This document shows, piece by piece, positions 4,979-61,808 of a DNA stretch of 64,000 nt (the first letter of the stretch is position 1; the number at the start of each line of letters is the position of its first letter). Where the stretch lies: contig JANQNA010000007.1 of the NCBI GenBank assembly GCA_028279825.1, forward strand, positions 89,409 through 153,408, read 5' to 3'. A program made the translations under genes and the position numbers. Under the pieces are notes generated by a model. That model did no database searches and was not told where the DNA came from. It saw only the letters and a list, made by a program, of their open reading frames with translations. The stretch is from an archaeon (GTDB taxonomy: Archaea > Aenigmatarchaeota > Aenigmatarchaeia > GW2011-AR5).

Positions 4979-5932
4979 ATGGCGAATGTACTGATAACCG
5001 GATGCGGTGGATTCATTGGTTCCCACCTTGCTGATTATCTGGTTAAGAGGGGAGACACTGTATACGGAACTACATTCAGTTTTGACGGGTCAAAGAATAT
5101 AGATCATCTTAAAGACAGGATAAATATAATCAAGTGCGATATGAAGAACAGGGAGGATGTGGAAAGGGCTGTCAAGGAGTCAAAACCTGATTTTGTTTTT
5201 CATATGGCTGCACAGAGCTTTGTTGTCCCTTCCTGGGAGGATCCTGAGAAGACTTTCCAGACGAACATATTTGGTACTCTTTATCTTTTTGAGGCGCTGG
5301 AAAAATACTCACCGGAAGCTGTTATAGGTGTTGCATGCAGTTCTGCTGAGTATGGTCATATAAAAGAAGATGAGGTTCCTGTTGGCGAGGACGGCAAGTT
5401 CAGACCGTCAAGTCCTTATGCCGTTAGCAAGATAGGGCAGGATATGCTTTCTTACCTTTACTGGAGAGCCCAGAACATGAAGATAATACGGATCAGGTTC
5501 TTTAACATAACCGGTCCAAGAAAGATTCTTGACATGTGTTCTGATTTTTCCAAAGGTATAGCTGAGGTTGAAGCCGGCAAAAAGGATAAACTGACGGTGG
5601 GTAATCTTGAAGGACTGAGAGATATAACTGATGTTCGCGACGCTGTAAAGGGGATTGTGCTTCTTTCACAGAAAGGAACACACGGAGATGTTTATAACGT
5701 ATGTTCCGGGAAAGCGATAAAGGTCGGCGATGTACTTGAAAAGCTTCTTTCTATGGCAAAAAAAGAGATAAAAGTGGAAAGTTCACCTGATCTGAGAAGA
5801 AAGATAGATGATCCGCTGTTTTTAGGGGACAATTCAAAACTGTTTAATCTGGGCTGGAAACTCGAAATTCCAATAGAAGATACACTTTCTGATATGCTCG
5901 AATACTGGCGTGACAGGGTGAACAATAGTTAG
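4979..5932 (+). CDS. NAD(P)-dependent NDP-sugar dehydratase/epimerase/reductase (extended SDR)
   Basis: 317 aa. GCGGFIGSHL glycine motif and catalytic YAVSK (YxxxK). Substrate not assignable by eye. Confidence 0.8.
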   Translation: MANVLITGCGGFIGSHLADYLVKRGDTVYGTTFSFDGSKNIDHLKDRINIIKCDMKNREDVERAVKESKPDFVFHMAAQSFVVPSWEDPEKTFQTNIFGTLYLFEALEKYSPEAVIGVACSSAEYGHIKEDEVPVGEDGKFRPSSPYAVSKIGQDMLSYLYWRAQNMKIIRIRFFNITGPRKILDMCSDFSKGIAEVEAGKKDKLTVGNLEGLRDITDVRDAVKGIVLLSQKGTHGDVYNVCSGKAIKVGDVLEKLLSMAKKEIKVESSPDLRRKIDDPLFLGDNSKLFNLGWKLEIPIEDTLSDMLEYWRDRVNNS

Positions 5933-5987
5933 ATAAGTGTACCAATACCAATTAAAAAGTTCTTAATATCTGAATGATAGTGATCTG

Positions 5988-6689
5988 ATGAAAGTCGTTA
6001 TTTTATGCGGTGGAAAGGGTGAACGAATGGGTCCTATAAGCTCTACTACCCCGAAACCGCTAATACAGATAGGCGAAAAACCTGTTTTGTGGCATATAAT
6101 GAAGACATTCGAATCTCACGGGTTCAAGGACTTTATTTTGTGTCTTGGTTACAAAGGTGACAAGATAAGAGAGCACTTTTCAAAGAATTATGACCACTGG
6201 AACATTGAATTCGTTGATACAGGACTGGAGTCCAAAAAATCAGAACGTCTGGCCATGGTGAAGGATTTAATAAAGGATGATAATTTCATGCTTTCTTACG
6301 GTGATGATCTTTCAGATGTGGACATAGAGAAGGTTGTGGAGACCCATAAGAAAATGGGCAGGATGGTGACATTAACTGCAGTGAAACTCACATCACCATT
6401 TGGCCTGGTTGATATACAGGAAGATTCAAGTGTCACGGGATTCAAAGAAAAACCTGTCATAGACAAATGGATTAACGGCGGCTATATGGTTCTCAACAGG
6501 AAAATCTTTGACCACCTTCATGAGGGTGAGCTTGAAGACGATGTATTTAAGAAACTTGTTGAGATGGGAGAGATATGTGCACACAAACATCCCGGCAGAT
6601 GGAAGAGTATGAGCACATTAAAGGATAATACTGAACTAAATAACATGTGGAATAACCAACAGGCTTATTGGAAAAAGTGGGATGATTGA
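5988..6689 (+). CDS. rfbF: glucose-1-phosphate cytidylyltransferase
   Basis: 233 aa. The N-terminus MKVVILCGGKGERMG…TPKPLIQIGEKPVLWHIMK matches the RfbF/DdhA signature. The CDP-glucose dehydratase-like gene follows directly. Confidence 0.8.
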   Translation: MKVVILCGGKGERMGPISSTTPKPLIQIGEKPVLWHIMKTFESHGFKDFILCLGYKGDKIREHFSKNYDHWNIEFVDTGLESKKSERLAMVKDLIKDDNFMLSYGDDLSDVDIEKVVETHKKMGRMVTLTAVKLTSPFGLVDIQEDSSVTGFKEKPVIDKWINGGYMVLNRKIFDHLHEGELEDDVFKKLVEMGEICAHKHPGRWKSMSTLKDNTELNNMWNNQQAYWKKWDD

Positions 6690-7674
6690 AATGTATTGGC
6701 AAGGCAAGCGCGTTTTTGTAACAGGGGCAACAGGATTTCTCGGATCCTGGATAGCCAAACAGCTCACGGAATCCGGTGCACATGTAACAGTTCTTATAAG
6801 GGATGTACCTGCTAATTCAAACTTCTTTCTTTCAGGACTGGACAAAAAAACAAACATGGTTAATGGTGATGTAAAGGATTTAGAGACCGTGTCGCGTACG
6901 CTGAATGAGTACGAGATTGATACTGTTATACATCTTGCAGCCCAGGCACTGGTAAAACCGGCTGTGAACAATCCTGTAGAGACGTTTGAGGTTAACGTAA
7001 GAGGTACATGGAATGTTCTGGAGGCTGCCAGAAGAAACAACGTGGAAAGACTTGTGATGGCTTCAAGCGACAAGGCATACGGTTCGCATGAAATTCTGCC
7101 TTATGATGAAGATGCTATGCTTAAGGGAAGGTTCCCTTATGACGTTTCAAAGTCCTGTGCAGACATGCTAGGCCAGGCGTACTTTGCAACATATGGGTTA
7201 CCTGTTGGTATCACACGTTGCGGCAATCTTTACGGTCCAGGTGATATGAATTTCAGCCGTATCGTTCCGGGTACGATGAGGTCCATTATAAAGAATGAAA
7301 ACCCTGTTATCAGGAGTGACGGGACTTTCAAGAGAGACTACTTTTTTATCAGGGACGCAGTTGACGGATACCTGACACTGGCAAAGGCACTTGACCAGCA
7401 GAACATACGTGGCCAGGCGTTTAACCTTGCACCACAAAGACCTCTGACAGTACTGGAGCTGTTCAAGAAAATGATAGAAGTTTCGGGAAAAACACACCTC
7501 GAGCCTGTAATTAAGAATGAAGCAAAGCAGGAAATAAAAGACCAATATTTGTCCAACAAGAAAGCAAAAACAGTGCTTAACTGGTCTCCAAAATTTGCTG
7601 TTGAGGAAGGATTGAAAGAAACTTTTGACTGGTATGTTAAATTCTTTGGCAGCGAATCTATAGATAGATACTAG
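6682..7674 (+). CDS. rfbG: CDP-glucose 4,6-dehydratase
   Basis: 330-aa extended SDR. N-terminus YWQGKRVFVTGATGFLGSW is typical of RfbG/DdhB. Catalytic YDVSK. 8-nt overlap with rfbF. Confidence 0.8.
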   Translation: MIEMYWQGKRVFVTGATGFLGSWIAKQLTESGAHVTVLIRDVPANSNFFLSGLDKKTNMVNGDVKDLETVSRTLNEYEIDTVIHLAAQALVKPAVNNPVETFEVNVRGTWNVLEAARRNNVERLVMASSDKAYGSHEILPYDEDAMLKGRFPYDVSKSCADMLGQAYFATYGLPVGITRCGNLYGPGDMNFSRIVPGTMRSIIKNENPVIRSDGTFKRDYFFIRDAVDGYLTLAKALDQQNIRGQAFNLAPQRPLTVLELFKKMIEVSGKTHLEPVIKNEAKQEIKDQYLSNKKAKTVLNWSPKFAVEEGLKETFDWYVKFFGSESIDRY

Positions 7675-8111
7675 TGATTCTTATGATAAGTGGAGTTGTT
7701 GTAAAACCTCTGAAGCAGTTTCCTGATGAAAGAGGAAAAGTAATGCACATGGTTAGGTCTACAGATGAGGTTTTTGAAAAATTCGGAGAGATTTATTTTT
7801 CTACATGCAATCCCAATGCTGTCAAGGCGTGGAAACTTCACAAGAAAAAAACTTCCATATACTGTGTTGTTGCCGGTGATGCAAAGATAGTTTTACATGA
7901 CATGAGAGAAGAATCCGAAAGCAGGGGTAAAACAACAGAAATCAAGGCAGGCGAGAGTAATTATATACTGGTGAAAATACCACCGGGCGTTGCTCATGGT
8001 TTTAAGTGTATAAGTAATAAAAGTGCTATGATAGCAAATTTGGCTTCTGAACCGTATGATTCAGCAGACAACTTTGATATAGAAGCGGAGAAAATAAATT
8101 ATACGTGGTAA
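7674..8111 (+). CDS. small cupin NDP-sugar epimerase / 3,4-ketoisomerase-like protein
   Basis: 145 aa. FPDERGK near the N-terminus and …GVAHGF… near the C-terminus, as in RmlC-type epimerases and FdtA/QdtA ketoisomerases. Shorter than classical RmlC. GTG start overlaps the upstream stop by 1 nt; an ATG alternative is at 7683. Confidence 0.6.
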   Translation: MILMISGVVVKPLKQFPDERGKVMHMVRSTDEVFEKFGEIYFSTCNPNAVKAWKLHKKKTSIYCVVAGDAKIVLHDMREESESRGKTTEIKAGESNYILVKIPPGVAHGFKCISNKSAMIANLASEPYDSADNFDIEAEKINYTW

Positions 8112-54536: not shown

Positions 54537-54588
54537 AATAATTACATTTAATGTTAACTTTAAATAGACTTTGTATAAGTTACACGCC

Positions 54589-55554
54589 ATGTTAACACAG
54601 ACTGTAACAAGAAACTGGAAGATGTACAATCACGCCCAAACGGAAGAAAAACTCCTTGCTATGAGACTAATCAGCCACGCTATAGATTACATGGAATTCC
54701 CTTACGAGTACAAGGGAACAGGCAGGCCTTCAATCTACGTGACAGACATGATAAAATGCTGTATATTCAAGGTGTTTAATAACTTCTCATCGAGGAGAAC
54801 AATTTGTGATATCAAGTTGGCTCACGCTTTAGGGTATATAGATCATGTTCCTCACTTCAACACGGTAAACAACTACATGTCAAAAGAGGTTATAACTCCC
54901 CTCCTCCACAGGGTTTACAAAATTCTAGCTCTCCCTTTTGGTGATGTAGAGACCACGTTTGCTATCGATGCTTCGGGATTTTCTAACCTGCGCAAAAACA
55001 ACTGGATAGATTACAGAACCCAGAAAAAACGTATAGCTGGTTGGAAGAAACTCCACATCGTAACTGGGGTTAACACTACCATCATAGCCTCAGCAACTGT
55101 TAGTGAAGGAAAAAGAAACGACACTCTGTACTTTGATTCTCTAATCAGACAAACTGCAAAAGAATTCAGAGTGTTGGAAGTGTTAGCTGACCCTGCCTAT
55201 CTATCCCGTAACAACTGCAACACAGTTGAGGATGTAGGAGGGCGGCCTTTTATTCTTCCAAAATCCAATATCAGGTTAAGGTCTCTTCAAGCTTACAGTA
55301 GAGCACGGGCATGGAAAAAGATGATAAAAGTCTGGCGTGATAACCAACAGTTCTTCCTGGAAAAATACCACAAAAGAAGCAATGTAGAGTCCGCTTTCAG
55401 TTCCATGAAAAGGAAATTTTTACCTTACACTCGCAGCAAAAACGACACAGCCCAAACAAACGAGATCCTCATGAAGGTCATCTGTCATAACGCATCCATT
55501 CTTTGTAACGCTTTTTTCGAGCTCGGGATTAAATTCGAGCTAAAAAAGGTCTAG
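54589..55554 (+). CDS. DDE transposase, IS4 family signature
   Basis: D (FAIDASGFS), D (VLADPAYLS), and an exact Y-x2-R-x3-E-x6-K in KYHKRSNVESAFSSMK. The track start is TTG 54571, with ATG options at 54589 and 54622. The stop codon lies within the right terminal repeat. Confidence 0.85.
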   Translation: MLTQTVTRNWKMYNHAQTEEKLLAMRLISHAIDYMEFPYEYKGTGRPSIYVTDMIKCCIFKVFNNFSSRRTICDIKLAHALGYIDHVPHFNTVNNYMSKEVITPLLHRVYKILALPFGDVETTFAIDASGFSNLRKNNWIDYRTQKKRIAGWKKLHIVTGVNTTIIASATVSEGKRNDTLYFDSLIRQTAKEFRVLEVLADPAYLSRNNCNTVEDVGGRPFILPKSNIRLRSLQAYSRARAWKKMIKVWRDNQQFFLEKYHKRSNVESAFSSMKRKFLPYTRSKNDTAQTNEILMKVICHNASILCNAFFELGIKFELKKV

Positions 55555-55605: not shown

Positions 55606-56388
55606 ATGGTTGCTATGCCTATGGCGACATTTGATAGTATAATGAGGGAGCTCTTGCCACCAGAGAGGTTTGTATTATACGGTAGCGTCCTTTCTGAAGA
55701 AGTAAGACATGGAGGAGATTACTATGTCAGAAGTCCAAAACATGGAGTATTCGTGAAGGTTAGTTCGTTGCCATACAGAACTGTCAGAGAACATAATGAT
55801 TACGGAATTTGGGACAGATTAGATGCGTTAAGAAATGCCCCGTTTTACAGAATGGCCATAACAGACGAAAGTCTTCCTGCTGGTATTGAGGAAGGGCAGC
55901 ATATGATGCTTGACGGGGACCCATTCTTCTGCAGGCAAATGATGATAGCTAGTTTAGGACGTATAGGTTACCATCCTGCCTGCCCGGATCTAAGGGAGGC
56001 TATGCTACATGACCTGGACCCGTATATACGAGGCTGGTCTGCAACAGCCCTTGGAAGAATAGGTGACAAAAGATACACGGGAGATCTAATAGAGGCTGCC
56101 CGTGGCGGCCAGGGAGAAGCAACTGATGCTTTAGGACTAATGAAAGATGAGGCAGCTGTTCCTGCACTCAGAGAAATGCTAGAGGACAGCCAACGGGATC
56201 ATTATCTGGCCAGGTTCACACGCGACTATAGACGCGCAACAATGGCACGAAACAGAATTATGGACATAACAGAAGCACTGAACCGGATAGGAGGCAGTGG
56301 AAAACTTGCTGTGTCAGAAGCCTTAAGCACCGAAGATCCATGGTTAAACTGGTCAGCAGCCAAAGGTGTAGAATATTCAAAGATCTAG
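55606..56388 (+). CDS. HEAT/PBS-lyase-repeat protein
   Basis: 260 aa. Repeats of the …DPYIRGWSATALGRIGD… / …ATDALGLMKDEAAVPALREML… type. About 52-55% G+C in hand-counted lines, higher than its neighbours. Confidence 0.7.
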   Translation: MVAMPMATFDSIMRELLPPERFVLYGSVLSEEVRHGGDYYVRSPKHGVFVKVSSLPYRTVREHNDYGIWDRLDALRNAPFYRMAITDESLPAGIEEGQHMMLDGDPFFCRQMMIASLGRIGYHPACPDLREAMLHDLDPYIRGWSATALGRIGDKRYTGDLIEAARGGQGEATDALGLMKDEAAVPALREMLEDSQRDHYLARFTRDYRRATMARNRIMDITEALNRIGGSGKLAVSEALSTEDPWLNWSAAKGVEYSKI

Positions 56389-57134
56389 AGAATCTTGCCA
56401 TCTGTAAGGCGTTTCCAGTTTCTGTTTGTCTTTTCCTGGACTTTTTCTATGTCTTCTTCCTTGATTGCAAATCTCTTCTGGACGTGGTTGAATATATCTA
56501 CAGGTTCTAATCTGTTAGGCCGCTTTGTAAGGTTGACTGTACCTCTCTCTATCTCGAACAGCGGCCAGAGTCCGGTTTCAACAGCCACACGCCCGACTTC
56601 TATCATGTTTGACGGTTCAAATTCCCAGAATTCAGGGGACGGGCACAAAAGATCTATGAACTTGAAACCCGGTGTTGCTGCCGCTTTTTTTAATTTCGCT
56701 ATATAATCATCAGGGTGTGAAACTGTAGCTGTTGCCAAATATGCAGAACCGGCTACCAGTTCTTTGGAGAAGCTCTTGCCCAGTTTTTCGTCCATGCAGC
56801 TGTATCCCTGGTCGTTTGCACAAACGTACAGGATGTTTTCTGTGGCGTTTATCAAAGAGTTCAAATGTTCGGATGTTGATCCGTCACCTGCAAATACAAC
56901 CACAGTTGTATCTACTTTTGGATCCAGAGATCTTGCTATCCCGCGCGCTACACTCACGGCATTTGTACCTGCGTGCACGAAAGGTATGTTAAGGCCCTTA
57001 AGATCAGAGGAACTGACCAGAATTACGTTGTCTAACGCCTGTAATAATAGCTTCAAACCGAGTGTGCTGCCGCTGTCACTTCCGCCTGAAAATTCGACCT
57101 CTTTAAGCTCGTCTAAATTCACATCCATGGACAT
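56385..57134 (-). CDS. porB: 2-oxoacid:ferredoxin oxidoreductase beta (TPP-binding) subunit, divergent
   Basis: 249 aa. TPP motif VVFAGDGST…ND. Only 3 Cys in the whole protein. The N-terminal CxxC region is replaced by FSGGSDSGST. Confidence 0.65.
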   Translation of the reverse strand: MSMDVNLDELKEVEFSGGSDSGSTLGLKLLLQALDNVILVSSSDLKGLNIPFVHAGTNAVSVARGIARSLDPKVDTTVVVFAGDGSTSEHLNSLINATENILYVCANDQGYSCMDEKLGKSFSKELVAGSAYLATATVSHPDDYIAKLKKAAATPGFKFIDLLCPSPEFWEFEPSNMIEVGRVAVETGLWPLFEIERGTVNLTKRPNRLEPVDIFNHVQKRFAIKEEDIEKVQEKTNRNWKRLTDGKIL

Positions 57135-57178
57135 GGCTATTCCTTAGATTAAATACTTTTTATAGTTATAACCCATTT

Positions 57179-57253
57179 GGTGGCGATGATAAAACCGTCC
57201 CAGTGTGACAAGATTATATCTTGGATGAGCATACGGGTAGCTTTTGAGCCACC
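57179..57253 (+). ncRNA. candidate box C/D-like sRNA
   Basis: Terminal stem GGTGGC/GCCACC. C-like GCGATGA (57183-57189), D'-like GTGA (57205-57208), C'-like GGATGA (57223-57228) and D-like TTGA (57244-57247). Two 15-nt spacers. All boxes are imperfect. Confidence 0.3.
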
Positions 57254-57260
57254 GTTAATA

Positions 57261-57599
57261 CTAAACGAAAACGTCTCTTTGTTTTGAGAGTTCTACACCT
57301 TTTGGTACAAGTGCATATTTTAGAAAGGCTTCTTCTGGCGTTCCTTCAAAAACAAAGAAAACACCGTCACGTTCTACAAACACGTCTTCTTCATATGCTG
57401 TTGCTGTTTTGTGGTCGTGCATGGGACCCATCATACGTGTTATTTCTACACGGTTAGGGCGTCTTGTTACATCTGCAATCCCAGATCTGAAGTATTCAAA
57501 TTTTATTCCGTGGACTGCTGTGCCATAAAAGACAACAGTACCTTCCGAAAAGTCCTGTCCTGCGAATTCTTCAAAAGTAGCGTCTCTTGCTTCTGACAT
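57261..57599 (-). CDS. hypothetical protein
   Basis: 112-aa ORF. No motif recognised. Confidence 0.5.
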   Translation of the reverse strand: MSEARDATFEEFAGQDFSEGTVVFYGTAVHGIKFEYFRSGIADVTRRPNRVEITRMMGPMHDHKTATAYEEDVFVERDGVFFVFEGTPEEAFLKYALVPKGVELSKQRDVFV

Positions 57600-57632
57600 G
57601 GACTAAATATATGAGAAAACTATATATAACGT

Positions 57633-58064
57633 ATGAGAAAAGGAAGACAGATATATGCTGGAAAATACGAAGCAGCGCTAAAGCTCTGGAAAGAGGGCAA
57701 ATCTGTCAAGGAAATAGCAGCGGAGCTGAATGTATCTTACTCGGCTGCATATCACTGGGTGAAGGGGTTGCGTAAGCCGGAGAAGGGCAATGTTAACGAG
57801 TTCTATGATTACATACGTAAAGACGGTCCGCTACCTACGGCCAAAGTGGAAGAGCGGTTTAAAAAACATAATGAATTGTTTCTTATGGCCAACAAACGAG
57901 GGCTTCGCATGAGTAGGCATGTACTGCAGCGCAAATATGGTCCTTATGCTACGTGGTACTATGTTGACGGACAGGAAAAGCTGCTAGAGAAGCGTTTAGA
58001 GCAGCTGCAGGAAACAATAACAAACGTGAAGGATAAGCTAAGATCTAGTATCCTGAATAAATAG
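57633..58064 (+). CDS. helix-turn-helix protein
   Basis: 143 aa. KSVKEIAAELNVSYSAAYHWVKG is an HTH of the type seen in transposase and regulator N-termini. Confidence 0.55.
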   Translation: MRKGRQIYAGKYEAALKLWKEGKSVKEIAAELNVSYSAAYHWVKGLRKPEKGNVNEFYDYIRKDGPLPTAKVEERFKKHNELFLMANKRGLRMSRHVLQRKYGPYATWYYVDGQEKLLEKRLEQLQETITNVKDKLRSSILNK

Positions 58065-58290
58065 AGAATCTGCCATAATTTCTGTAAGGTCTGACATACG
58101 GCTGATAATAGTTGTAACCACCATAATAGCTTCCATAATGATGGCCATAGTGGTGGTAATTACCATAATGATAATTAGAGCCATAATTGTGGTGATAATT
58201 AGAACCGTAATAACCGTAACTTGGATAGCTGGAAAAGAAGAAGAATCCTAACACAAGCAAAATCATGACAAGTTGTAATAAGTTTTTCAT
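58045..58290 (-). CDS. secreted Tyr/His/Gly/Asn-rich low-complexity peptide
   Basis: 81 aa from ATG 58290. Signal/TM MKNLLQLVMILLVLGFFFF, then SYPSYGYYGSNYHHNYGSNYHYGNYHHYGHHYGSYYGGYNYYQPY… Starts 25 nt downstream of the porA stop on the same strand. Confidence 0.5.
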   Translation of the reverse strand: MKNLLQLVMILLVLGFFFFSSYPSYGYYGSNYHHNYGSNYHYGNYHHYGHHYGSYYGGYNYYQPYVRPYRNYGRFSIYSGY

Positions 58291-58315
58291 AACGCCTAAG
58301 ATAAGAGAAATTCTT

Positions 58316-59371
58316 TTAAAGCCATAATACAACATCGTTTTCGGCTTTGTCTACCTTGTCTAAAATGTCATGGAAGTCTTTTTCTGAAGGATACTTTCCC
58401 AGGGAAATGACGGAAGAGCCCTTGATATGACTGCTCAGGACACCTTTTCGGCCTAAAGATACAGCCTGGTCAAAAACCACGACTTTTCTGCCTGTCAAGA
58501 CCTTTAACTCTTCCTCGGGCCAGGGTCTAAAGACCCTTATACGCAGCAAACCAACTTTTCTTCCCTCTTCACGCATTTTCTTCACGGCGGCTTTTGCCGT
58601 TGAGGAGTGGTATCCGGCTATAACAATTACCGTTTCCGCGTCTTCTGTCATAAAGTTCTCTACTAATCCATAAGATCTTCGGAATTTCTGCTTCCATTTT
58701 TCATCAGTTTTCTTTATGATTGTCAGCGCGTTTTCCATTGCCTTCTGCTGCTGAAGTTTTAATTCACTATACTCTTCGGAGAAAATATCATTTACAAGAG
58801 GCTTTTTCATGTCCAGTCTTTTCGGGTTGAATCTTGTCAGCAGGCCTTTTGTGGACTGTTCTGTTGACATCTGTACAACCTCTGTGTAACTTGACGGACC
58901 GTCTATGTTTACTATCACAGGTAACAAAACTTTGCTGTCCTCGGCAATCCTGTAAGCCTGGATTATTGTGTCATGGATTTCCTGGTTGGTTTCAGGGAAG
59001 AACATTAGATAACCTGCATCACGCAGAGCCATTACAGCAGAATGGTCACTCCTTAAACCATGCTGGGATCTTGAGACATTTGCCATTACAAAAGGAAGAC
59101 GCATAAAAGGTGCACTGAATGTCTCATATGCCAGAGGCGAGGAGACCGGAACAAACGTTCTTTTCCCCGCTGTTGCCGTTCCAACAGCGGAAGCCATGAC
59201 AGCACTTACTGATTCTGCCTGGAAAATATCACAGTTGTGAATTTCCCTCAATTTTTTTGTTATGTCAATAGAGAATGGAGCCGGAAAATTAGGAACAGCC
59301 TCTACAAAGGATAGCTTTGCGGCATGTGCAGCCGATTCTGTAGATGATAAAACATTACCTTTCATAATCAT
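58316..59371 (-). CDS. porA: 2-oxoacid:ferredoxin oxidoreductase alpha subunit, divergent
   Basis: 351 aa. POR_N-like layout (GNVLSSTESAAHAAKL…, …AESVSAVMASAVGTATAGKRTF…). Usual blocks are altered: YPITP becomes NFPAPF and ESEHSA becomes AESVSA. Confidence 0.7.
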   Translation of the reverse strand: MIMKGNVLSSTESAAHAAKLSFVEAVPNFPAPFSIDITKKLREIHNCDIFQAESVSAVMASAVGTATAGKRTFVPVSSPLAYETFSAPFMRLPFVMANVSRSQHGLRSDHSAVMALRDAGYLMFFPETNQEIHDTIIQAYRIAEDSKVLLPVIVNIDGPSSYTEVVQMSTEQSTKGLLTRFNPKRLDMKKPLVNDIFSEEYSELKLQQQKAMENALTIIKKTDEKWKQKFRRSYGLVENFMTEDAETVIVIAGYHSSTAKAAVKKMREEGRKVGLLRIRVFRPWPEEELKVLTGRKVVVFDQAVSLGRKGVLSSHIKGSSVISLGKYPSEKDFHDILDKVDKAENDVVLWL

Positions 59372-59649
59372 ACCCTTGGTTCATTTTTTTCCGATTCTTC
59401 TGATATTGCAAAAACAGGACATTCACGCAGGCATATCAGACAGCCTGTGCAACGGTTATAGTCAATAACAGGGAACCCATTTTTGTTCTTGTTTATTGCA
59501 TTGTGGGGGCAAAAAACTATGCAGTTGTAATTCTTTTCACACTTTTTTAAATCTATCTTTGGCTTGTGAACCCTTACAGGCCTGGCTGAAGGCTGCGGTT
59601 GTGATACAGGCAGCCTTTTGTCATCGTATTTTACTTCATTCAGATTCAT
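59368..59649 (-). CDS. porD: 2-oxoacid:ferredoxin oxidoreductase delta subunit (2x Fe-S ferredoxin)
   Basis: 93 aa. The first motif is CEKNYNCIVFCP (CxxNxxCxxxCP, second Cys replaced by Asn). The second motif CTGCLICLRECP is canonical. Confidence 0.8.
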   Translation of the reverse strand: MNLNEVKYDDKRLPVSQPQPSARPVRVHKPKIDLKKCEKNYNCIVFCPHNAINKNKNGFPVIDYNRCTGCLICLRECPVFAISEESEKNEPRV

Positions 59650-60080
59650 TATTTCACACTCTTGTAACCATCATCGAGCATTGTGAAGAAGCTCTTTTCA
59701 AGGCCTTCTGACTCCAAGGAATTCTTGATACTTTTCATGGTTATCTTGCCGAAAACCTTTGGAATCGTGCCAATGACAGGCATGGCAGGCTTATTCAGCT
59801 TAATATGGGTCATCGATATCCCCGTAGCATCAACAAAATAGGACTTTACCTTCTTTGCTTTCAGCTTCGGTGATACAACCTTTGCCGGTGAGTTGAATAC
59901 AGCTATGGAACCTTCACGGAACATCTTTGGATCTGCGATAGAAGGGTCAAATATCATGTAATAATCAGGATCTACATACTCTTTGGACAAAATAGGGGCT
60001 TTTTCAGCCTTTACAATACCCTTTCCGTCTAATACAAAGCTCTGCACGTAAAATCCAGACGCGAAACATGCCTTTGACAA
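59649..60080 (-). CDS. porG: 2-oxoacid:ferredoxin oxidoreductase gamma subunit with unresolved start
   Basis: The track ORF starts at TTG 60080. The in-frame upstream sequence to 60158 encodes …TVTFGLYGKHGQGVEIAVKIL, the conserved G-rich N-terminus of gamma subunits. It contains no ATG, GTG or TTG. Confidence 0.6.
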   Translation of the reverse strand: MSKACFASGFYVQSFVLDGKGIVKAEKAPILSKEYVDPDYYMIFDPSIADPKMFREGSIAVFNSPAKVVSPKLKAKKVKSYFVDATGISMTHIKLNKPAMPVIGTIPKVFGKITMKSIKNSLESEGLEKSFFTMLDDGYKSVK

Positions 60081-60171
60081 GATTTTTACTGCAATTTCAA
60101 CTCCCTGGCCGTGTTTTCCGTACAGTCCAAAAGTTACCGTATTTCCCCACCGAGTAAACTATTATGGTAAA

Positions 60172-60181
60172 TTAATATAAA
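60172..60181 (-). promoter_or_regulatory. TATA box upstream of the por gamma gene
   Basis: The minus strand reads TTTATATTAA, about 14 nt upstream of the open in-frame region that ends at 60158. Confidence 0.35.
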
Positions 60182-60280
60182 GGTATAGCGAAAAATGTGC
60201 GTTTTCAGCAGAAAACACTGCAATAAACTCTATTAACCTACATAAACCCGGAAAAAGAAGTTTTCTGAAAAGAAAAAAAT

Positions 60281-60574
60281 CTAATTTGAAGGCGTTTCTT
60301 CTTCTTCCTCTGTCTCTACGGAAGTTGGTGAGATGTGCTTTATGATGACTACGTCACCCACAGATTGTACCATTGTGAAAGGTACGATCACACCTCTCTT
60401 ATCGCCTACAAGCGATGCAAGAAAAGATCCACGCACTGCGTCTACAACAAGTGATTTTACGCGGAATTTTTCAAGGTCAAGACCTACATCAAGGATCTTA
60501 CCACAATAAGAACCCTTGTGCGTAAATACCTCTTTCCTTGTCATATCAGAAAAGCTCTTTGGTGTTACTGCCAT
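60281..60574 (-). CDS. PRC-barrel domain protein
   Basis: 97 aa. The pattern …GSYCGKILDVGLDLEKFRVKSLVVD…VIVPFTMVQSVGDVVII resembles PRC barrels. Confidence 0.55.
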   Translation of the reverse strand: MAVTPKSFSDMTRKEVFTHKGSYCGKILDVGLDLEKFRVKSLVVDAVRGSFLASLVGDKRGVIVPFTMVQSVGDVVIIKHISPTSVETEEEEETPSN

Positions 60575-60651
60575 TATAATTCCTCCTTTGTCTATTATTG
60601 CCTTCGGAACTTTTAAAGATTGCTTGACTTCCGTTGTAATTGGTGCGTAAT

Positions 60652-60897
60652 TCAGCGAACCATGTCATATGCGGCAAGTGCACTCTCACGTGTTACGTGG
60701 CCTACCATTCTTCCTGGTGTGCCCGCCAACAGGAAGTAATAGCTGGGTTGATTGTTTTGCTGAAGAAGTTCTAAATCCCTGTCAGCCTGTTCCATTGAGC
60801 TAACCAACCCTATACCAAATCCAAACATATTTGGTACGCTGAATGCAATCCCAAGAGACAATGCTATAGGTTTTACAAACCCTCTGTATCCTGGCAT
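60652..60897 (-). CDS. small hypothetical membrane-associated protein
   Basis: 81 aa from ATG 60897. The longer track ORF runs into the tRNA-Cys gene. Confidence 0.4.
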   Translation of the reverse strand: MPGYRGFVKPIALSLGIAFSVPNMFGFGIGLVSSMEQADRDLELLQQNNQPSYYFLLAGTPGRMVGHVTRESALAAYDMVR

Positions 60898-61587: not shown

Positions 61588-61678
61588 GCTCCGTTCGTCT
61601 AGCCCGGTCAACTAATACAGACCGTAAGGATCTCGGCCTTTCAAGCCGGTGGCGCGGGTTCAAATCCCGCACGGAGCA
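61588..61678 (+). tRNA. tRNA-Glu (UUC) with a ~16-nt insertion in the D loop
   Basis: Acceptor GCTCCGT/ACGGAGC plus A. D region GTCTAGCCCGGTCAA[CTAATACAGACCGTAA]GGAT. Anticodon arm TCGGC-CTTTCAA-GCCGG. T arm GCGGG-TTCAAAT-CCCGC. Confidence 0.75.
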
Positions 61679-61775
61679 CTTTCGGATTTGAACCTTCGGG
61701 TTCACGTTCGATTGAGCGAAGCTCATCGACGGCTCGAAGAACACAGTTCTTCGCAGCAATCCCGCACGGAGCACT
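61663..61775 (+). repeat. 18-nt direct repeat of the tRNA-Glu 3' end flanking a 77-nt three-hairpin insert
   Basis: AATCCCGCACGGAGCACT occurs at 61663-61680 and 61758-61775. Hairpins between them: TGAACC-TTCG-GGTTCA (61689-61704), TCGATTGAGC-GAA-GCTCATCGA (61708-61729) and CGAAGAAC-ACA-GTTCTTCG (61735-61753). Confidence 0.85.
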
Positions 61776-61808
61776 CATAATTAAAAATAGATGGGAAAGA
61801 AAAAATTA

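Follow-up and report, generated by a model that had tools for sequence, protein, structure and literature searches.

A remodelled gene module derived from pyruvate:ferredoxin oxidoreductase in Aenigmarchaeota, probably without redox function, and a conserved ACG as candidate start codon of its gamma gene

The genes encoding four subunits related to pyruvate:ferredoxin oxidoreductase (POR), a member of the 2-oxoacid:ferredoxin oxidoreductases (OFORs), were identified in a 64,000-nt stretch of an archaeal genome (Aenigmatarchaeota, assembly GCA_028279825.1, contig JANQNA010000007.1, positions 89,409 to 153,408), hereafter called the window. All four were located on the minus strand: gamma (59649-60140, OFOR domain III with PorC_KorC similarity, 163 aa if it starts from an ACG codon), delta (59368-59649, a two-cluster ferredoxin domain, above the cutoff of TIGR02179 PorD_KorD), alpha (58316-59371, domains I and II, Pfam POR_N 3e-23 and PFOR_II 5e-20) and beta (56385-57134, domain VI, the PP-domain that binds thiamine pyrophosphate (TPP), Pfam TPP_enzyme_C 1.4e-8). 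The gamma stop overlapped the delta start by 1 nt and the delta stop overlapped the alpha start by 4 nt (ATGA), an arrangement consistent with translational coupling of the three genes. The initial annotation had described gamma, delta and alpha as contiguous and beta as displaced by about 1.2 kb, in agreement with the 1181 bp measured between the alpha end and the beta start. This interval contained an HTH_23 protein gene (57633-58064, plus strand, Pfam HTH_23 8.8e-8) and two putative genes on the minus strand identified only as open reading frames (ORFs), one encoding a transmembrane helix with a Tyr/Gly/His/Asn-rich tail (58045-58335) and the other 112 aa (57261-57599). A PRC-barrel gene (60281-60574, minus strand, Pfam PRC 5.5e-9) was located upstream of gamma. 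The predicted promoter of the gamma-delta-alpha operon is a TATA-like box, TTTATATTAA (60172-60181, minus strand), found by direct reading of the sequence, and nucleotide alignment placed TTTAAAT or TTTATAT boxes at the same site in all related loci. The beta gene had its own box on the same strand, TATAAAAA, about 22 nt upstream of its ATG, for which a promoter role is predicted.

Pfam recognised all four subunits, alpha and delta above the cutoffs and gamma, scored from an ORF starting at TTG, with 20.5 bits against a cutoff of 27.4. The NCBIfam scores were 225 bits for alpha (NF040682 PorA_Arch, cutoff 550), 133 bits for beta (NF008819 PorB, cutoff 405), 50 bits for gamma (TIGR02175 PorC_KorC, cutoff 81) and 67 bits for delta (PorD_Arch, cutoff 120). 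Among the models scored, only TIGR02179 was passed, by delta (64 bits, cutoff 60).

About 46 relatives of alpha were found with 40-79% identity, all of about 350 aa, and every named one belonged to Aenigmarchaeota (DPANN). Ordinary POR alphas ranked next, with at most 38% identity and about 390 aa. In the loci fetched around the alpha relatives (designated L001, L002 and so on), the order PRC-barrel, gamma, delta, alpha, HTH, beta was common to L001-L018, and the module was also present in the much deeper lineages L032, L033 and L034, arranged as PRC-gamma-delta-alpha(-HTH)-beta in the latter two. About 30 Aenigmarchaeota loci carried the order from PRC-barrel to beta, with alpha identities of about 38-79%. 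Thus, the module is old, and the window holds an intact copy of a POR-derived module typical of Aenigmarchaeota.

In most lineages the module was flanked by genes for the two subunits of an ADP-forming acyl-CoA synthetase (ACD), with an ATP-grasp_5 gene before gamma and a CoA_binding/Succ_CoA_lig gene after beta. Such flanks were identified in L001-L004, L006-L008, L010, L013-L015, L026-L028 and L032, and they included lineages that lack the Cys ligands or the GDG motif of beta described below. In L034 an AMP-forming acyl-CoA synthetase gene followed beta instead. No ACD gene was detected anywhere in the 64-kb window, nor at the locus in L005 and L033; the window and L005 have lost the ACD link at the locus.

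The initial annotation regarded the genes between alpha and beta as three unrelated genes accompanied by an RNA-like element. The HTH gene was real, but it was also found between alpha and beta in L001-L005 and L008-L017, and after beta in L033, with amino-acid identities of 44-82% between the window protein and its relatives. Because the same alpha-HTH-beta order recurs across Aenigmarchaeota loci, the HTH gene is an ancestral and constant member of the module and not a recent disruption. It was co-directional with its neighbours in L003, L015, L016 and L034, and inverted in the subclade of the window. In L034 it abutted both neighbours (alpha 5547-6578, HTH 6579-7001, beta 7001-7762, with a 1-nt overlap). 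A comparison of the HTH protein with PDB gave no significant match. The RNA element did not stand: Rfam gave no match at the gathering score in the window, nor any in 56300-60700 when the threshold was relaxed to E <= 1, and the 128-nt spacer before beta, the longest one, folded no better than shuffled sequence (z = -1.1). For the Tyr/Gly-rich ORF no Pfam or NCBIfam match and no tblastn match in any related locus were obtained; in its product a hydrophobic helix precedes the tail, which is extremely rich in Tyr, Gly, His and Asn (YGYYGSNYHHNYGSNYHYGNYHHYGHHYGSYYGGYNYY). The 112-aa ORF likewise had no match to a Pfam or NCBIfam family and none in the related loci.

The PRC gene was identified upstream of gamma in L001, L003, L005-L008, L012-L014, L018, L033 and L034, and it stays beside the module throughout the phylum. 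Its product was 92-99% identical among lineages with POR-like subunits that were only 55-80% identical, with dN/dS values of 0.006-0.04.

The four-subunit archaeal POR (PorABCD/PorABDG), represented by the enzyme of Methanosarcina acetivorans (PDB 9BT4), was the best match of the window proteins in sequence and structure (alpha 6.9e-41, or 7.8e-70 with a profile; beta 1.3e-21; TM-scores 0.82-0.90). The assignment of domains I and II to alpha, VI to beta, III to gamma and V to delta was the same, as was the gene order gamma-delta-alpha(-beta), and the GDG...N motif and the substrate Arg of the 9BT4 enzyme were both kept. However, the window proteins lacked the TPP-activating Glu, the Thr of YPITP, the Cys of the proximal cluster and one Cys of delta motif 1; in addition, alpha was about 50 aa and beta about 45 aa shorter, and the HTH gene was located between them. 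Judged by their sequences, the window proteins fail four residue-level features of OFORs (Glu, YPITP, proximal-cluster Cys and delta motif 1) and are therefore classed as a POR-derived variant and not as a POR.

In alpha, NFPAPF stands in place of the canonical YPITPQ and AESVSA in place of ESEHSA, as had been noted at first reading. Phmmer and profile alignments agreed in aligning Val55 with the second Glu of ESE in 9bt4_B (SE in 6cin, 1b0p and 7plm). The TPP-activating Glu, Glu294a in the OFOR of Sulfolobus tokodaii (StOFOR) and Glu64 in the PFOR of D. africanus, was found in 69 of 69 canonical alphas and in none of 44 clade members, which had Ala (22), Gln (7), Val (5) or other residues (Asn, Phe, Ser, Gly, Leu) at this position. 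The Thr of YPITP was likewise absent from all 44; 40 of them had Pro instead (Pro32 in the window), and the Ile, Pro and Gln of the motif were also lost, together with the TxT and GL of FTATSSQGL. The substrate carboxylate Arg was kept in 91% of the clade (Arg101 in the window). Among the 57 columns that were at least 90% conserved in the canonical set, 25 were kept in the clade, 14 partly kept and 18 lost, with nearly all losses between residues 29 and 110, on the side of domain I that faces TPP and the substrate. In StOFOR, Glu294a hydrogen-bonds N1' of TPP and activates it, the substrate carboxylate is held by Arg344a together with the YPITP residue Thr256a, and activity depends on each of these three residues (PMC5020499). 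The counterpart of Arg344a in the oxalate oxidoreductase of M. thermoacetica is Arg109a.

The beta subunit of the window contained three Cys in total. In canonical betas the cluster ligands are the two Cys of CxGC, a third past the next strand and a fourth in PCP; in the window these columns held G18, S21, L45 and S166, which bears out the first description of FSGGSDSGST at the CxxC site. The Mg-TPP motif was kept (G83-D84-G85 ... N107-D108), as was GDG(A/S)T with the downstream N-D/N in 40 of 41 close clade betas. Among 77 columns conserved in canonical betas, 43 were lost in the clade, and the NTGGQ...TTTP active-site loop comprised 21 residues against 42 in canonical betas, i.e., it was about 21 aa shorter. 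All four ligand Cys were present in only three of 42 close betas, which belonged to basal lineages such as L003 and L015. Three ligands remained in 26, with Ser, His or Ala as the third, and CxGC alone in two, P0122 (79% identical to the window) and P0123, the beta of L005. The other 11 had no ligand Cys; these were the window (SGGSDSG/CPSP), P0124 (QPGSG/CPEP) and nine sequences with PPGSG/CPSP. No replacement ligands or new conserved Cys were found in the alignment of clade betas, and Cys ligands at shifted positions, which would have argued against the first description, were not encountered.

Bootstrapped neighbour-joining trees (100 replicates) were calculated after removal of the four Cys columns. 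The lineage of the window was monophyletic in 97 of 100 replicates and the PPGSG clade in 96, and both together were never recovered (0/100). Because the two never grouped, the ligands of the proximal cluster were lost at least twice, and probably three times, and the loss of CxGC in the window's own lineage is recent and independent.

A search of 1.84 billion representative proteins with a clade-beta profile gave 171 matches at E <= 1e-30, including 49 short-loop representatives (50%-identity clusters), of which the named ones were Aenigmatarchaeota. Approximate counts among these 49 were 14 with an intact GDG, 12 with all four Cys, four with both and 27 with neither, and 13 had no ligand Cys at all. 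GDG was lost in L032, L033, L034, P0160 and most deep representatives, while the module was kept in these four lineages. The beta of L034 retained all four Cys (CCCC) but had ADDVAT for AGDGAT, and that of L033 had no Cys ligand and SDS for GDG. In L032, VDE replaced GDG, EPGSG replaced CxGCG, delta motif 1 was degenerate and the N-terminus of alpha was gutted, and the module was still located between ACD-beta and ACD-alpha. The family forms a natural series with four, three, two or no Cys, with and without GDG and always without the activating Glu, which shows which parts of an OFOR serve what, and why a cofactor-poor scaffold is retained. Every OFOR has been described as having TPP and one to three [4Fe-4S] clusters (PMC12337175); by its sequence, a beta without ligands falls outside this description. 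In StOFOR, the cluster is required for oxidative decarboxylation and dispensable for non-oxidative decarboxylation (PMC5020499).

In delta, the second Cys of motif 1 was missing (C37-x2-N40-x2-C43-x3-C47-P), confirming the CxxNxxCxxxCP first reported, while motif 2 was a normal CxxCxxCxxxCP. A motif of this kind without its second Cys typically points to a [3Fe-4S] or labile cluster. Motif 1 read C-x-K-[N/T/S/D]-x-x-C-x3-CP throughout the subclade of the window, and both motifs were normal in L033, L034 and canonical relatives. Seven of the eight delta Cys were thus retained in the window and the near clade.

The departures of each subunit from the canonical motifs, the scores far under the NCBIfam equivalog cutoffs and the placement of the organism in DPANN, a group with reduced genomes, would be expected if a pseudogene cluster were decaying by reductive evolution, as the initial annotation had proposed as one of two explanations. 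However, all four ORFs were intact in every lineage examined (more than 40), and pairwise dN/dS values (Nei-Gojobori) were 0.03-0.2 across the four subunits. In the unsaturated pairs among L006, L007 and L008, the values were 0.12-0.20 for gamma, 0.03 for delta and 0.09-0.10 for alpha; for delta overall they were 0.03-0.08. Pairs of Cys-less betas gave 0.07-0.09 (0.09 for both L001-L014 and L014-L026), and the window beta compared with its 81%-identical relative L024 gave 0.05, these beta values being rough because dS was saturated, with small dN. The same lesions, and the split of beta from alpha, were common to dozens of lineages; the lesions were shared by relatives at 38-79% identity and are therefore old. 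The new alpha motifs such as FPAPFS were themselves conserved, and the start and stop codons still overlapped. AlphaFold2 gave confident models for beta (pLDDT 89.4, pTM 0.90; TM-score 0.82 to the M. acetivorans POR beta, 9bt4_C) and alpha (pLDDT 88.3, pTM 0.90; TM-score 0.90 to 5c4i_A and 9bt4_A). These results refute decay, which we consider barely credible. Purifying selection acts on all four subunits, and the models of alpha and beta have the fold of POR subunits.

Different lineages have lost different OFOR residues, whereas the fold, the length, the set of subunits and the synteny were kept, a pattern that fits an early loss of catalysis (no Glu, no YPITP) in a complex kept for another reason. 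The cluster is probably a selected, remodelled POR derivative that is either non-redox or catalytically silent, and it should probably not be taken for an ordinary pyruvate oxidoreductase. The four proteins of the window would still assemble into a POR-like complex. Mg-TPP would probably still be bound at the alpha/beta interface, as GDG...N and the substrate Arg are kept, and delta would probably carry a [3Fe-4S]/[4Fe-4S] pair. Electron transfer from TPP to delta would be broken because beta lacks a cluster, and ferredoxin-linked oxidative decarboxylation is, from the residues lost, most likely no longer performed.

Several observations weigh against this interpretation, and some of them would favour a 2-oxoacid:ferredoxin oxidoreductase that still works by unconventional means and feeds acyl-CoA to the neighbouring ACD. 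The near clade conserves GDG...N, the substrate Arg and seven of the eight Cys of delta, as a working enzyme would. ACD, the classic partner of a real POR, flanks the module in most lineages, the Cys-less ones included, which suggests that acyl-CoA is still made. As cited in PMC5020499, glyoxylate carboligase is active without the activating Glu. The trees were neighbour-joining only, dS was saturated in most beta comparisons, and the motif columns of very divergent betas may be one off (SDS of L033 keeps Asp). Such an enzyme might activate TPP without Glu, use Ser/Asp or no proximal cluster, and pass electrons to a rearranged delta or to an external ferredoxin near TPP, for which the deleted beta loop could open the site. 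However, all four ligands are missing from the window beta and no new conserved Cys is present, the variable residue at the Glu position argues against a specific compensation, and the lineages without GDG (L032, L033, L034 and P0160) keep the module. In known structures TPP is more than 20 Å from the medial cluster, a distance too long for electron transfer. YPITP is essential in StOFOR, and its cluster is required for oxidative decarboxylation (PMC5020499). A working oxidoreductase is thus an unlikely alternative. The other explanation offered by the initial annotation, a strongly remodelled TPP enzyme with a different electron path, is supported as far as the remodelling goes, with GDG...N and Arg kept in the window and its near clade; the path itself gained no support, and no replacement ligands were found. 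On the sequences, the loss of GDG in deeper lineages and the lack of new ligands fit a loss of redox function better than a re-routing of electrons.

Within the reading of a remodelled, non-redox or silent complex, we tentatively rank first a non-catalytic role, in which the complex would act as a binding partner, scaffold or sensor in connection with the HTH protein and with the acyl-CoA synthetases encoded beside the module in most relatives. A non-oxidative TPP chemistry, such as decarboxylation or carboligation, is ranked second and seems rather unlikely. Still more speculative is a pseudoenzyme complex that has abandoned TPP/Fe-S redox catalysis, found throughout the phylum and acting as metabolite- or redox-binding partner, sensor or scaffold for the HTH protein and the acyl-CoA synthetase, with an ACG-started first gene in one large subclade. 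The strongest case for a real metabolic link comes from the position of the module between ACD genes, which neither extreme reading explains.

Some known systems offer partial precedents. Alpha, beta and delta all had their second-best match in the oxalate oxidoreductase of Moorella thermoacetica (PDB 5C4I). This enzyme is a remodelled OFOR in which YPITP reads YPIRP and the substrate is handled differently (PMC5020499). However, it keeps the catalytic Glu, three clusters and full activity and does not use CoA, whereas the window proteins lose cofactor ligands. Cys-to-Ala variants of StOFOR and the CoA-dependent pyruvate decarboxylase side activity of archaeal PORs show residual abilities without a proximal cluster, but these laboratory mutants or side reactions belong to enzymes that keep Glu and YPITP, while in the present clade the proximal cluster has been lost in nature, repeatedly and together with Glu and Thr. 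Catalytically dead paralogues retained for binding, scaffolding or regulation are known as pseudoenzymes. The module resembles them in its mosaic loss of catalytic and cofactor residues, which differs between lineages, alongside continued purifying selection on fold, length, subunit composition and synteny; it differs from clear pseudoenzymes in that GDG and the delta Cys are retained in many members, which leaves room for residual catalysis. Glyoxylate carboligase naturally has Val for the activating Glu, as does the window alpha, but it belongs to an unrelated lineage of thiamine diphosphate (ThDP) enzymes and its Val is fixed and tuned, whereas the position is variable in the Aenigmarchaeota clade. 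In the literature collection, which was incomplete, so that this is absence of evidence only, nothing was found on degenerate or cluster-less OFORs in DPANN, nor any account of an OFOR clade without cluster or Glu.

A metabolic reconstruction of Aenigmarchaeota takes these 'por' genes at face value (PMC8407114). The fermentation from pyruvate via acetyl-CoA to acetate and ATP implied by this annotation may be overcalled, and the energy metabolism of these host-dependent archaea would have to be reconsidered if pyruvate is not oxidised by the complex.

The gamma gene differed from the others in its start. Its frame was open from 60158 (FTRWGNTVTFGLYGKHGQGVEIAVKIL) and contained no ATG, GTG or TTG before TTG 60080, so that, as first described, the conserved N-terminus lay upstream of the only available canonical start. 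A run of about 26 codons without a canonical start has a chance probability of roughly 0.27; the stretch is meaningful because it is homologous to the N-terminus of gamma in relatives, not because it is rare. At 60138-60140 (minus strand) an ACG occupied the position at which the homologous codon of L003, L011, L012, L015, L016 and L017 is ATG. The same ACG was identified at the gamma start site of L005, L001/L002/L013, L014, L006/L007/L008 and L028, and in L032 it stood one codon nearer the Gly-rich motif, aligned with the GTG start of L020. ACG made up 21% of the Thr codons in the window genes, yet it was invariant at this site. In L005 an in-frame TGA was located two codons before it (TGA AGA AAT ACG). 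Compared with the ATG-type loci L012 and L030, in which ATG follows the TATA box by 23-24 nt and the transcript is apparently leaderless, the ACG-type loci carried an insertion of about 10 nt with an invariant GGTG 6-7 nt before ACG (60148-60151 in the window, minus strand, Shine-Dalgarno-like, 7 nt before ACG). In the first 20 codons past ACG, synonymous to nonsynonymous changes in close pairs of ACG-type loci were 5:1, 5:2, 3:2 and 5:2 (omega about 0.1-0.18), so that this stretch evolves like coding sequence under purifying selection.

These features suggest that gamma most likely starts at ACG 60140 and has 163 aa. Translation would begin at this conserved ACG, with a very short leader and with assistance from the GGTG located 7 nt upstream. 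A general use of ACG as start codon is not indicated: when 133 open frames of at least 100 codons in the window were scanned for a Shine-Dalgarno-like motif and ACG before the first canonical start, only gamma qualified, and one further match was an antisense artefact inside a Metallophos gene.

An assembly or sequencing error, or a true start at TTG 60080 without the N-terminal strand and the Gly-rich loop, would make an ACG start unnecessary. TTG 60080 is the first canonical start, and gene callers choose downstream starts, the gammas called in L001 and L005 having 134 and 147 aa, respectively. However, the same ACG, GGTG and spacing were present in independent ENA, NCBI and JGI assemblies (L001, L002, L013, L005, L006-L008, L014 and L028), which speaks against a sequencing error. 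Moreover, the stretch from ACG to the first canonical start was conserved as protein, its changes being mostly synonymous, and in L001 the first canonical start would cut about 50 conserved residues. Such an error or TTG start is thus very improbable.

The GTG within GGTG offers another start. Translation might begin at this GUG on a leaderless transcript and shift by +1 before the fourth codon (GUG-GGG-AAA-U|ACG) in the window, L005, L001 and L032, or ACG might be edited to AUG in the RNA. The distance from TATA to GTG was 24 nt in all ACG-type loci, equal to that from TATA to ATG in L012 (23 nt in L011 and L030), and a homopolymer run preceded the extra base in the out-of-frame loci (AAA-T or TTT-T). 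The GTG was in frame in L006-L008 and L014, and ACG initiation is not forced there, a point that weakens the case for ACG. However, a frameshift would be needed in three to four lineages only, while ACG provides one mechanism for all; the invariance of a mere internal Thr codon would be unexpected at saturated dS, and no recognised slippery or stall signal was present. To our knowledge, C-to-U editing of mRNA is not known in archaea. A GUG start with a frameshift is less economical than initiation at ACG, and we regard this explanation, editing included, as improbable.

In reviews, archaeal start codons are AUG, GUG and UUG only (PMC4705826), and in ribosome profiling of Haloferax near-cognate initiation sites were seen but set aside (PMC7261190). 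No report of ACG starts in archaea was found in our incomplete literature collection, which is absence of evidence only. The conserved ACG at an orthologous start together with the GGTG-bearing insertion is a candidate for near-cognate initiation in Archaea, and a conserved natural ACG start would, if true, be an unusual documented case in this domain. Gene callers shorten this gamma by 20-50 residues.

The Gly-rich loop of gamma (GxGGQG, of the CoA-binding domain III of OFORs) was degenerate in some lineages, with GKERDV in L005, GLD--A in L018 and GEGADL in L034.

A metagenome scan with a gamma profile gave five loci, four of which were near-duplicates of loci already in the set. Between L001 and L002 (7199-8377), which are near-identical and belong to the same population, a 392-aa ORF was split into 314 and 71 aa by an apparent frameshift, and in L001 (10610-12076) ACD-alpha was split into 282 and 156 aa in the same manner. 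These frameshifts beside the module are probably assembly errors or population variants.

An IS5-family transposase gene was identified at 54571-55554 of the window (plus strand, NCBIfam transpos_IS5_2 4e-33). Together with adjacent small ORFs it breaks the synteny with L005, between a HEAT-repeat gene (55606-56388) and a block of a 141-aa ORF, LTD and Metallophos genes (52939-49974).

A tRNA-Glu(UUC)-like gene was located at 61588-61680 (plus strand), with the acceptor stem GCTCCGT/ACGGAGC, the anticodon loop CTTTCAA and a good T-arm. It was missed by ARAGORN, and Rfam covered model positions 8-63 only (31.7 bits). The D-arm region holds about 15 surplus bases, which may represent a non-canonical intron. 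A second copy of the 3' end, AATCCCGCACGGAGCAC, was located about 97 nt downstream (61761-61777), resembling an attachment-site duplicate.

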